Source: Spirochaetia bacterium
GTDB lineage: Bacteria; Spirochaetota; Spirochaetia; CADAEX01
Assembly (NCBI GenBank): GCA_963662265.2
Contig: CAXXHA010000004.1
Coordinates: 1 to 64,000 of the forward strand
DNA length: 64,000 bases
Direction of reading: 5' to 3'
Of the stretch, positions 49,639-49,739 are shown piece by piece; position 1 is the first letter of the stretch, and every line of letters begins with the position of its first letter. Position numbers and translations under genes: made by a program. Below the pieces are notes generated by a model. That model was not told the DNA's origin, did not search any database, and saw only the letters and a program-made list of their open reading frames with translations.

Positions 49639-49739
49639 TAATCGCTTTCGAGCACTTCCTTTCAGGAAGTCTCAGTCTTGTTGAGCACTTCCTCTTCAAG
49701 GAAGTCTCTGTGCTGATTATAAAAACAGGTTTATAATCA
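49639..49739 (-). repeat. Two-hairpin element with duplicated hairpin-1 (tamB-bamA junction)
   Basis: Hairpin-1 49650-49673 and 49683-49708; hairpin-2 49714-49739 just after the tamB stop. Confidence 0.85.

Follow-up and report, generated by a model that had tools for sequence, protein, structure and literature searches.

The window, the whole 64,000-nucleotide stretch of DNA analysed here, lies on contig C4 of a 41-contig, 3.77-Mb genome of a Spirochaetia bacterium (G000; G+C content 38.5%). All genes around the features described below are carried by its minus strand. At the junction between tamB and bamA, at the junction between bamA and skp, and twice in tandem ahead of a gene encoding a TPR (YfiO-like) protein, sequence reading revealed four copies of one arrangement in mRNA sense, consisting of an AT-rich hairpin (H2), a short linker, a hairpin with a bulged base (H1), a tail, an SD sequence and an ATG (Table 1). 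The original prediction had placed this two-hairpin layout in the bamA leader, at 46992–47060 and at 8474–8609, and it was borne out base for base. The same is true of its description of the hairpins, namely an H1 base of GAGAC/GU-(bulged G)-CUC below a covarying upper stem, loops of 3–5 nt, and GUUUUU in H2. Between the element's tail and the skp SD there is also a small extra hairpin (46975–46989, minus strand), which is absent from the empty sites of relatives.

Table 1 Coordinates of the element copies in the window, their neighbouring signals, and candidate enzyme genes elsewhere in the genome (window positions unless a contig is named; bit scores marked R1 are from the covariance model described in the text)
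Feature	Position	Strand	Remarks
tamB stop codon	49743–49745	−	
H2, tamB–bamA	49714–49739	−	10-bp stem, 6-nt loop, AT-rich; begins 3 nt past the tamB stop
Linker, tamB–bamA	49709–49713	−	5 nt; 5′ of the distal H1 in mRNA sense
Distal H1, tamB–bamA	49683–49708	−	GAGAC...GU-G-CUC with bulged G; R1 29.3 bits
Spacer between the two H1, tamB–bamA	49674–49682	−	9 nt
Proximal H1, tamB–bamA	49650–49673	−	R1 match 49638–49681, 51.5 bits
Conserved tail, tamB–bamA	49636–49649	−	abuts the bamA SD
bamA SD	49631–49635	−	
bamA ATG	49623–49625	−	
bamA stop codon	47061–47063	−	
Single unit, bamA–skp	46990–47060	−	R1 50.8 bits
H2, bamA–skp	47036–47060	−	
Linker, bamA–skp	47028–47035	−	
H1, bamA–skp	47004–47027	−	
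Tail, bamA–skp	46990–47003	−	
skp SD	46965–46969	−	
skp ATG	46961–46963	−	
Two units ahead of the TPR (YfiO-like) gene	8474–8609	−	R1 54.1 and 34.3 bits; gene assigned by Pfam
H2, upstream unit, TPR gene	8588–8609	−	
H1, upstream unit, TPR gene	8557–8581	−	
H2, downstream unit, TPR gene	8527–8552	−	
H1, downstream unit, TPR gene	8496–8521	−	followed by the tail
TPR-gene SD	8468–8472	−	
TPR-gene ATG	8458–8460	−	
IS200-like Y1 homologue	C39:58668–59024		144.8 bits; internal TAG stop
Weaker Y1 homologue	C35:213443–213787		
Weaker Y1 homologue	C29:88580–88918		
Integron-integrase homologue	C8:77912–78853 (L125:1643–2863)	+	TIGR02249, 383.6 bits; curated cut-off 265

A structured repeat family dispersed through the genome

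We searched the whole genome with an nhmmer profile seeded with 48 strict H1 copies, which found 67 H1 copies at 38 loci (E ≤ 0.1). A covariance model, R1, built from 57 distinct genomic H1 copies (alignment A1), returned 71 matches at about 41 loci at the same threshold; three of these matches represent extra degenerate loci, two of which likewise closely precede an SD and ATG. A loose regular expression gave 161 matches, mostly noise, and was dropped. Read in mRNA sense, the unit measures about 70–75 nt and comprises H2, a 7-nt linker (AGCGRCA), H1 and a tail of about 10 nt (GAWAGCGWTW), after which comes the SD. The consensus of H1 is GAGACTTYC-loop-GRAAGT-G-CTC, and that of H2 is a conserved, A/U-rich A-run/C top on a variable lower stem. 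Since 23 of the 25 strict H2 hairpins in the genome occur within 120 nt of an H1 locus, we regard H2 as part of the same element. The arrays contain one to four H1 modules per locus, and the lower stems of H2 are the same within a locus and different between loci, which points to local amplification. With regard to a CRISPR-like origin, no array of 22-mers at 50–90-nt spacing was found in the assembly; the sole 22-mer repeat at that spacing, from C32:115708 onward, is a tandem of four 77-nt units unrelated to the element.

Both hairpins vary in sequence while keeping their pairing. The 11 pairs of the H1 stem are 97.1% paired across the 57 distinct copies in A1, double changes are found in 6 of the 11 pairs (56 cells), and the observed covariation score was reached by none of 500 column shuffles. 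Among 34 H2 units, 33 fold as a hairpin of 9–14 bp, with 32 different stem sequences, in which the top five pairs are conserved and positions 6–12 show all four Watson–Crick pair types. Because the MAFFT alignment A2 sets the gaps in H2 inconsistently, these pairs were counted outward from the loop by a script that allowed G-U and stopped at any other mismatch, a procedure unfit for a strand-bias test. The non-Watson–Crick cells of H1 comprise 14 G-U and 10 A-C, without strand bias; thus, the wobble pattern tells neither which strand folds nor whether selection acts on RNA or on single-stranded DNA. In its minimum-free-energy fold, the skp leader forms H2 and H1 and leaves the SD unpaired (z = −3.4), and the bamA leader, with its two H1, folds well (z = −5.2) into a less clear minimum-free-energy structure. 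The original prediction took the covariation as the signature of a functional RNA. The covariation itself withstood the shuffling control, but a conserved regulatory RNA did not emerge from the comparisons described below, in which the element is absent from congeners and orthologous copies in a second genus (g50) decay. Palindrome arms can change in concert as DNA even where RNA is under no selection, and hairpin covariation in dispersed repeats does not by itself prove a regulatory RNA.

The placement of the element relative to genes is highly ordered. At each of the 38 loci, all copies lie on one strand, in the sense of the flanking genes. An SD-preceded start (of an ORF of at least 45 aa) follows within 90 nt downstream in sense at 34 of the 38 loci, compared with 626 of 5000 random intergenic positions (12.5%), 422 of 5000 positions taken anywhere and 1 of the 38 loci in antisense when the same test was applied; in 15 loci, such a start comes 10–17 nt past the tail. 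Together with the 71 R1 matches, these counts support the proposal of a repeated, structure-preserving module in mRNA sense directly 5′ of ribosome-binding sites. Many genome-wide copies in random orientation and context had been named as the mark of a REP/MITE-type repeat. Many copies are indeed present genome-wide, but their orientation and context are not random, with one strand per locus and 34 of 38 loci ahead of an SD. A crude ORF call placed a same-strand ORF stop within 100 nt upstream at 27 of the 38 loci, which indicates that most copies are intercistronic.

The downstream genes are diverse. We scanned 30 of the 34 downstream proteins against Pfam, and 24 of the 30 matched a family; of the other four, one is cut at a contig end and three were named by eye and are presumably L19-like, ArgC-like and ACT-domain proteins. 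Membrane or envelope biogenesis accounts for 6 of the 30 scanned proteins (BamA, OmpH/Skp, TPR/YfiO-like, YidC, FtsY and FloA), and the remainder include ribosomal and proteolytic proteins (ribosomal protein L9 and HslV), metabolic proteins (transketolase, CoaBC, OrtA, GHMP kinase, the N-terminal part of glutamate synthase and a NuoE-like ferredoxin) and proteins of transport and stress (ABC transporter parts, TctC and Usp). The suggested tie to envelope-biogenesis genes is thus not upheld. For annotation, leaders bearing the element should not be taken for gene-specific riboswitches or attenuators.

Empty and filled junctions in two lineages

We searched 40 relatives with R1, including all 19 other genomes of the family (which makes up the whole order), and found no true copy of the element. 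Weak single matches in the g3 genomes and in G005, G009, G027, G034 and G035 were dismissed as either a terminator hairpin between convergent genes or chance. The g3 hairpin has a perfectly conserved 10-bp stem, lies between two convergent genes and occupies an orthologous site in six small-genome relatives (L040–L043, L046 and L048); it is probably a bidirectional terminator.

The two same-genus genomes, G001 and G002 (96% and 97% complete), gave no credible R1 match even at E ≤ 1. Their BamA proteins are 87% and 83% identical, respectively, to BamA of the window, and in both genomes the tamB stop is separated from the bamA SD by 2–4 nt and the bamA stop from the skp SD by 1–4 nt. Seven further junctions, followed by the genes for FloA, rplI, rplS, a small membrane protein, TctC, an ACT protein and a NuoE-like ferredoxin, are contiguous in the relatives and carry an extra 37–110 nt in the present genome. 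The orthologous junction was empty in 9 of 9 cases in G001 and in all 8 that were found in G002, where one locus was not found. Therefore, the elements are insertions in this lineage. Moreover, the empty sites have a matching SD, spacer and ATG, showing that these signals are native and were not brought by the element. A contig from run X4, belonging to a strain of about 98% identity, spans 46787–49678 without a gap and carries the bamA–skp insert; thus, the insertions are older than the split from that strain.

The family has a second home. In a class-wide sample of 151 genomes, four carried it, all of them in genus g50 of another family. Within that family, all seven g50 genomes were positive, with 1–21 matches each, and two sister genera were negative (0/4). 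An exact-pattern scan of metagenome contigs found two with arrays of the same element. The single match in a phylum-wide sample of 150 other genomes (G176) fell inside a coding sequence and was attributed to chance. The g50 copies have the same linker, H1 base, tail and position as those in G000, and the same H2 base where H2 is present; in some, a different, G+C-rich upstream hairpin stands in place of H2. In all ten g50 copies inspected, an SD and start codon follow directly on the 3′ side. Hairpin tops in g50 measure 30–45 nt and are variable, and across both genera the interior ranges from 3 to about 45 nt. The targets in G000 and g50 have no gene family in common.

Orthologous g50 copies were found upstream of the genes for rubredoxin (three species), fabF (two), an aldo-keto reductase (AKR; two) and another gene (two). 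In a survey of the fabF and AKR junctions in which every species was viewed regardless of model matches, the fabG–fabF junction was empty in four of four outgroup genomes, and the six g50 genomes in which it was recovered comprised two with an intact element, two without the 5′ arm, one with a tail remnant and one with an empty site. The AKR junction in g50 displays the same series from intact to empty. At the fabG–fabF junction of G162 (L134), the TAG that ends fabG shares bases with the beginning of the H1 stem; G143 (L131) has TAA at the corresponding position and has lost the 5′ base of H1. A tally of 110 identical motif positions out of 112 in orthologous g50 pairs was set aside as largely circular, since, of the 28 positions compared in each pair, 24 had been prescribed by the regular expression, and the model had served to find the pairs in the first place. 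The survey thus shows g50 copies being gained and later decaying and disappearing, as expected of a repeat with little site-specific function. The patchy distribution of the family looks like transfer.

Insertion sites, candidate enzymes and known repeats

Filled and empty orthologous sites, as for mobile repeats, are present, and we compared nine such pairs. At rplI, the SD hexamer (6 bp) is perfectly duplicated on either side of the unit, and at rplS an 8-bp stretch situated 20 nt upstream of the SD is perfectly duplicated. Beside these two perfect duplications, about three of the nine pairs have imperfect ones, in which the left flank resembles a decayed SD, and four have none. On average, the longest string common to the two flanks measured 4.43 within a locus and 4.22 between loci (21 loci); as sharing within a locus is no greater than between loci, a fixed-length target duplication is unsupported. 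Most units have a left end that is SD-like in a generic way. One insert consisting of H1 only sits between a native linker-like stretch and the native SD, which suggests joining via microhomology. In the nine filled/empty pairs, we saw no case of an H2 lower stem taken from the target flank, and inspection of A2 by eye showed unit ends that are not complementary and do not look like the terminal inverted repeats that characterize a MITE.

Three homologues of Y1 transposases (PF01797) are encoded in G000 (Table 1). None of these genes is flanked by H1, the best nearby R1 score being 9.5 bits, and PF01797 proteins are also present in the repeat-less genomes G001 (five), G002 (one) and G009 (one). 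No link to the REP/RAYT (IS200) system thus emerged. The integron-integrase homologue has similar counterparts in 9 of 14 other Spirochaetia genomes searched, and a link to integrons was rejected, because an equally good IntI occurs in the repeat-less G001, G002, g75 and g34. The 17 kb on one side of intI contain no repeat copies and no obvious cassette-like array, the attC core RYYYAAC/GTTRRRY is absent from A1 and A2 by inspection, and the copies are found in core syntenic operons, at about 41 scattered loci, rather than gathered in cassette arrays. Contig C8, which carries intI, also has unrelated tandem repeats of two 101-nt units and three units of about 70 nt (L125:9693–9894 and L125:11670–11882).

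Rfam 15 gave no match at gathering score in the 64-kb window, and permissive Rfam scans of 49590–49790 and of one g50 copy yielded noise only (E ≥ 0.25, far below the gathering scores), in agreement with the original prediction, which had recognised no known family. A full-text literature search returned no paper on an intergenic repeat element in Spirochaetia. The family had no precedent in the databases and literature searched. Enterobacterial REP/BIME and pneumococcal BOX elements are small structured modules of variable order and number in transcribed intergenic DNA, with compensatory changes in their hairpins. The present element resembles them as a mosaic of small structured modules whose hairpins are held by compensatory change. 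REP/BIME are distinguished by GTAG, a G+C-rich palindrome, RAYT and a position 3′ of genes; by contrast, the element is without these features, has one orientation and lies 5′ of the SD. REP/REPIN sequences are G+C-rich palindromes of about 35 nt with a 5′ GTAG, in both orientations or as inverted doublets; neither the GTAG nor such a palindrome is found in alignments A1 and A2, H2 is AT-rich, and each of the 38 loci has its copies on one strand. In sum, the element fails the tested defining features of REP/RAYT, MITE, attC and terminators.

Closer parallels come from repeats that adjoin gene starts. The spirochaete repeats treated in the 2011 review by Delihas are Borrelia plasmid repeats only, and the same review describes Neisseria REP2 and Borrelia IR-A/IR-B as repeats without terminal inverted repeats that contain two internal stem-loops, lie immediately upstream of genes and carry their own promoter, ribosome-binding site and ATG (PMC3184786). 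The element is like REP2 and IR in being without terminal inverted repeats, in its two stem-loops, in its tens of copies and in lying directly upstream of genes. Unlike these repeats of 120–180 bp with a promoter, ribosome-binding site and ATG of their own, it is smaller, is followed by a native SD and ATG and has no promoter-like site; also, most of its copies lie inside operons between co-directional genes. MIRUs are described as sequences of 40–100 bp in about 40–50 copies, with empty and filled sites, inside operons (PMC3184786), and according to a 2025 review their insertion appears to take place at the start codon, whereby an internal ORF becomes coupled to the gene (PMC12548453). The element and MIRUs share their shortness, an often tandem arrangement, an intergenic position within operons, co-orientation with genes, empty and filled sites and insertion at gene starts, which in MIRUs does little harm to expression (PMC3184786, PMC12548453). 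The corresponding figures in G000 are one to four modules per locus, an upstream stop at 27 of 38 loci and a downstream start at 34 of 38. Whereas MIRUs, so described, insert at the start codon with an internal ORF coupled at −4, the element inserts at or before the SD and has no consistent internal ORF by eye; the reading frame opened by an ATG at the start of H2 usually closes, again by eye, with a stop after about eight codons. MIRUs are G+C-rich, unlike the AT-rich hairpin and bulged hairpin of the element, and the likeness is one of description. TAACTGA heptamers of Beggiatoaceae, cyanobacteria and Bacteroidetes are reported to lie a few nucleotides upstream of the starts of unrelated genes, including ribosomal protein genes, with a patchy, transfer-like distribution and a mechanism that is not known (PMC4679880). 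The element shares with them proximity to the start, unrelated genes and patchiness, but they are 7-nt unstructured direct repeats and its units have two hairpins in about 70 nt. In its behaviour, the element comes closest to a MIRU- or REP2-type repeat.

Origin and possible roles of the element

Taking these results together, we consider that the element in the bamA leader is probably one locus of a family of lineage-restricted small interspersed mosaic repeats, sense-oriented and SD-proximal. Units were inserted in gene sense, either within the narrow gap that separates a stop codon from the following SD or immediately 5′ of an SD; they were amplified locally to one to four modules and then persist or decay. 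Such units would be co-transcribed inside polycistronic mRNAs, and their insertion may be tolerated since the SD stays intact and unpaired. Any effect on expression would then be generic, the hairpins separating or insulating cistrons and breaking stop/start coupling, rather than specific to a class of genes. For their spread, we favour a process anchored on the SD region, which may be copy-choice at microhomologies or the action of a recombinase that recognises the folded hairpins. A regulatory role common to the copies is unsupported. If this reading is true, a small repeat colonises the tightest operon gaps, of 2–10 nt between a stop and the next SD, without destroying expression, and its gain, amplification and loss take place over the times that separate species. 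Descriptions of repeats of this kind from spirochaete chromosomes are very scarce. The same reading raises the mechanistic question of where strict polarity and SD-proximal targeting come from in a 70-nt element without a transposase.

Several observations would suit a cis-acting RNA regulon, in which the H1 base and the tail beside the SD are a binding or cleavage site for a shared trans-acting RNA-binding protein or endoribonuclease that coordinately controls translation, processing or stability of the downstream cistrons, mobility being only the route of recruitment. These are the sense-only placement of the copies within 90 nt of an SD-preceded start at 34 of 38 loci, the same position directly 5′ of an SD and start in the ten copies inspected in other genomes, the strong covariation in both stems, the occurrence of one and the same H1 base and tail in two distant genera whose hairpin interiors span 3 to about 45 nt, and the predicted fold of the skp leader, which forms both hairpins with the SD free (z = −3.4). 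We nevertheless regard a regulon as unlikely. The downstream genes are without a functional theme and no target gene family is common to the two genera; the congeners are without the element at all nine sites tested, and the orthologous g50 copies decay or vanish. Stem arms can co-evolve as DNA, the non-Watson–Crick cells of H1 have no strand bias (14 G-U and 10 A-C) and the invariance of the motif in orthologous pairs is largely built into the way the pairs were found. A site acting at the DNA level, where a recombinase or HUH enzyme recognises attC-like folded hairpins in single-stranded DNA and inserts them with strand specificity, any RNA structure being a by-product, would account for the strict polarity and for the combination of a conserved stem base, a bulged G and a top that varies from 3 to about 45 nt, as in folded recombination sites; the two perfect target duplications of 6 and 8 bp and the presence of an integron integrase scoring above its cut-off and of three Y1 homologues are also in line with it. 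It appears decidedly improbable, however, given that integrases as good exist in the repeat-less G001, G002, g75 and g34, that Y1 genes occur in G001, G002 and G009 and are unflanked by H1 in G000, that neither the RYYYAAC/GTTRRRY core nor GTAG was found on inspection, that the copies reside in core syntenic operons and not in cassette arrays, and that target duplication is not general.

Least credible of all is an ordinary transcription signal, with H2 serving the upstream gene as intrinsic terminator or with a promoter in the element serving the downstream gene, in the manner of Neisseria REP2. H2 does directly follow stop codons, and the two-stem-loop repeats REP2 and Borrelia IR carry a promoter and ribosome-binding site according to the review cited (PMC3184786). 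However, a consensus scan found no terminator-like site and no minus-strand promoter-like site inside either of the window elements scanned, and promoter-like sites in the region numbered 6 against 7.9 expected. H2 is almost without G-C pairs and has no U tail, and the SD is native, as the empty sites show.

Some points weigh against the reading as interspersed repeats, which we prefer. Such strict sense orientation and closeness to the SD would be out of the ordinary in a REP or MITE, and both traits could stem from an mRNA function instead; moreover, the unit ends do not look like terminal inverted repeats by eye, target duplication is not general and no transposase was found to go with the element. 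The near-identical H1 base, linker and tail in two distant genera, along with compensatory pairing, would fit recognition by some factor. We tentatively entertain, as a possibility with the balance against it, that the element is a previously undescribed mobile module that homes to SD sequences in fixed polarity, has its hairpin bases recognised by a dedicated factor, has spread between distant Spirochaetia and may have been co-opted as a common operon-internal leader signal.

The element is apparently one part of a wider mosaic of repeat modules in this genome. Other short modules, such as a unit of about 60–150 nt with a small G+C-rich hairpin, stand beside H1 and H2 at three loci outside the window (C10:331915–332124, C14:25603–25922 and C15:38493–38862) and alone elsewhere; further sites of extra modules are C22:1274–1396, C41:31138–31272, C29:66877–67030 and C30:4899–4977. 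In addition, a 900-bp duplication of 93% identity, between C10 at about 330.7–331.6 kb and C3:40936–41835, adjoins repeat locus 13.
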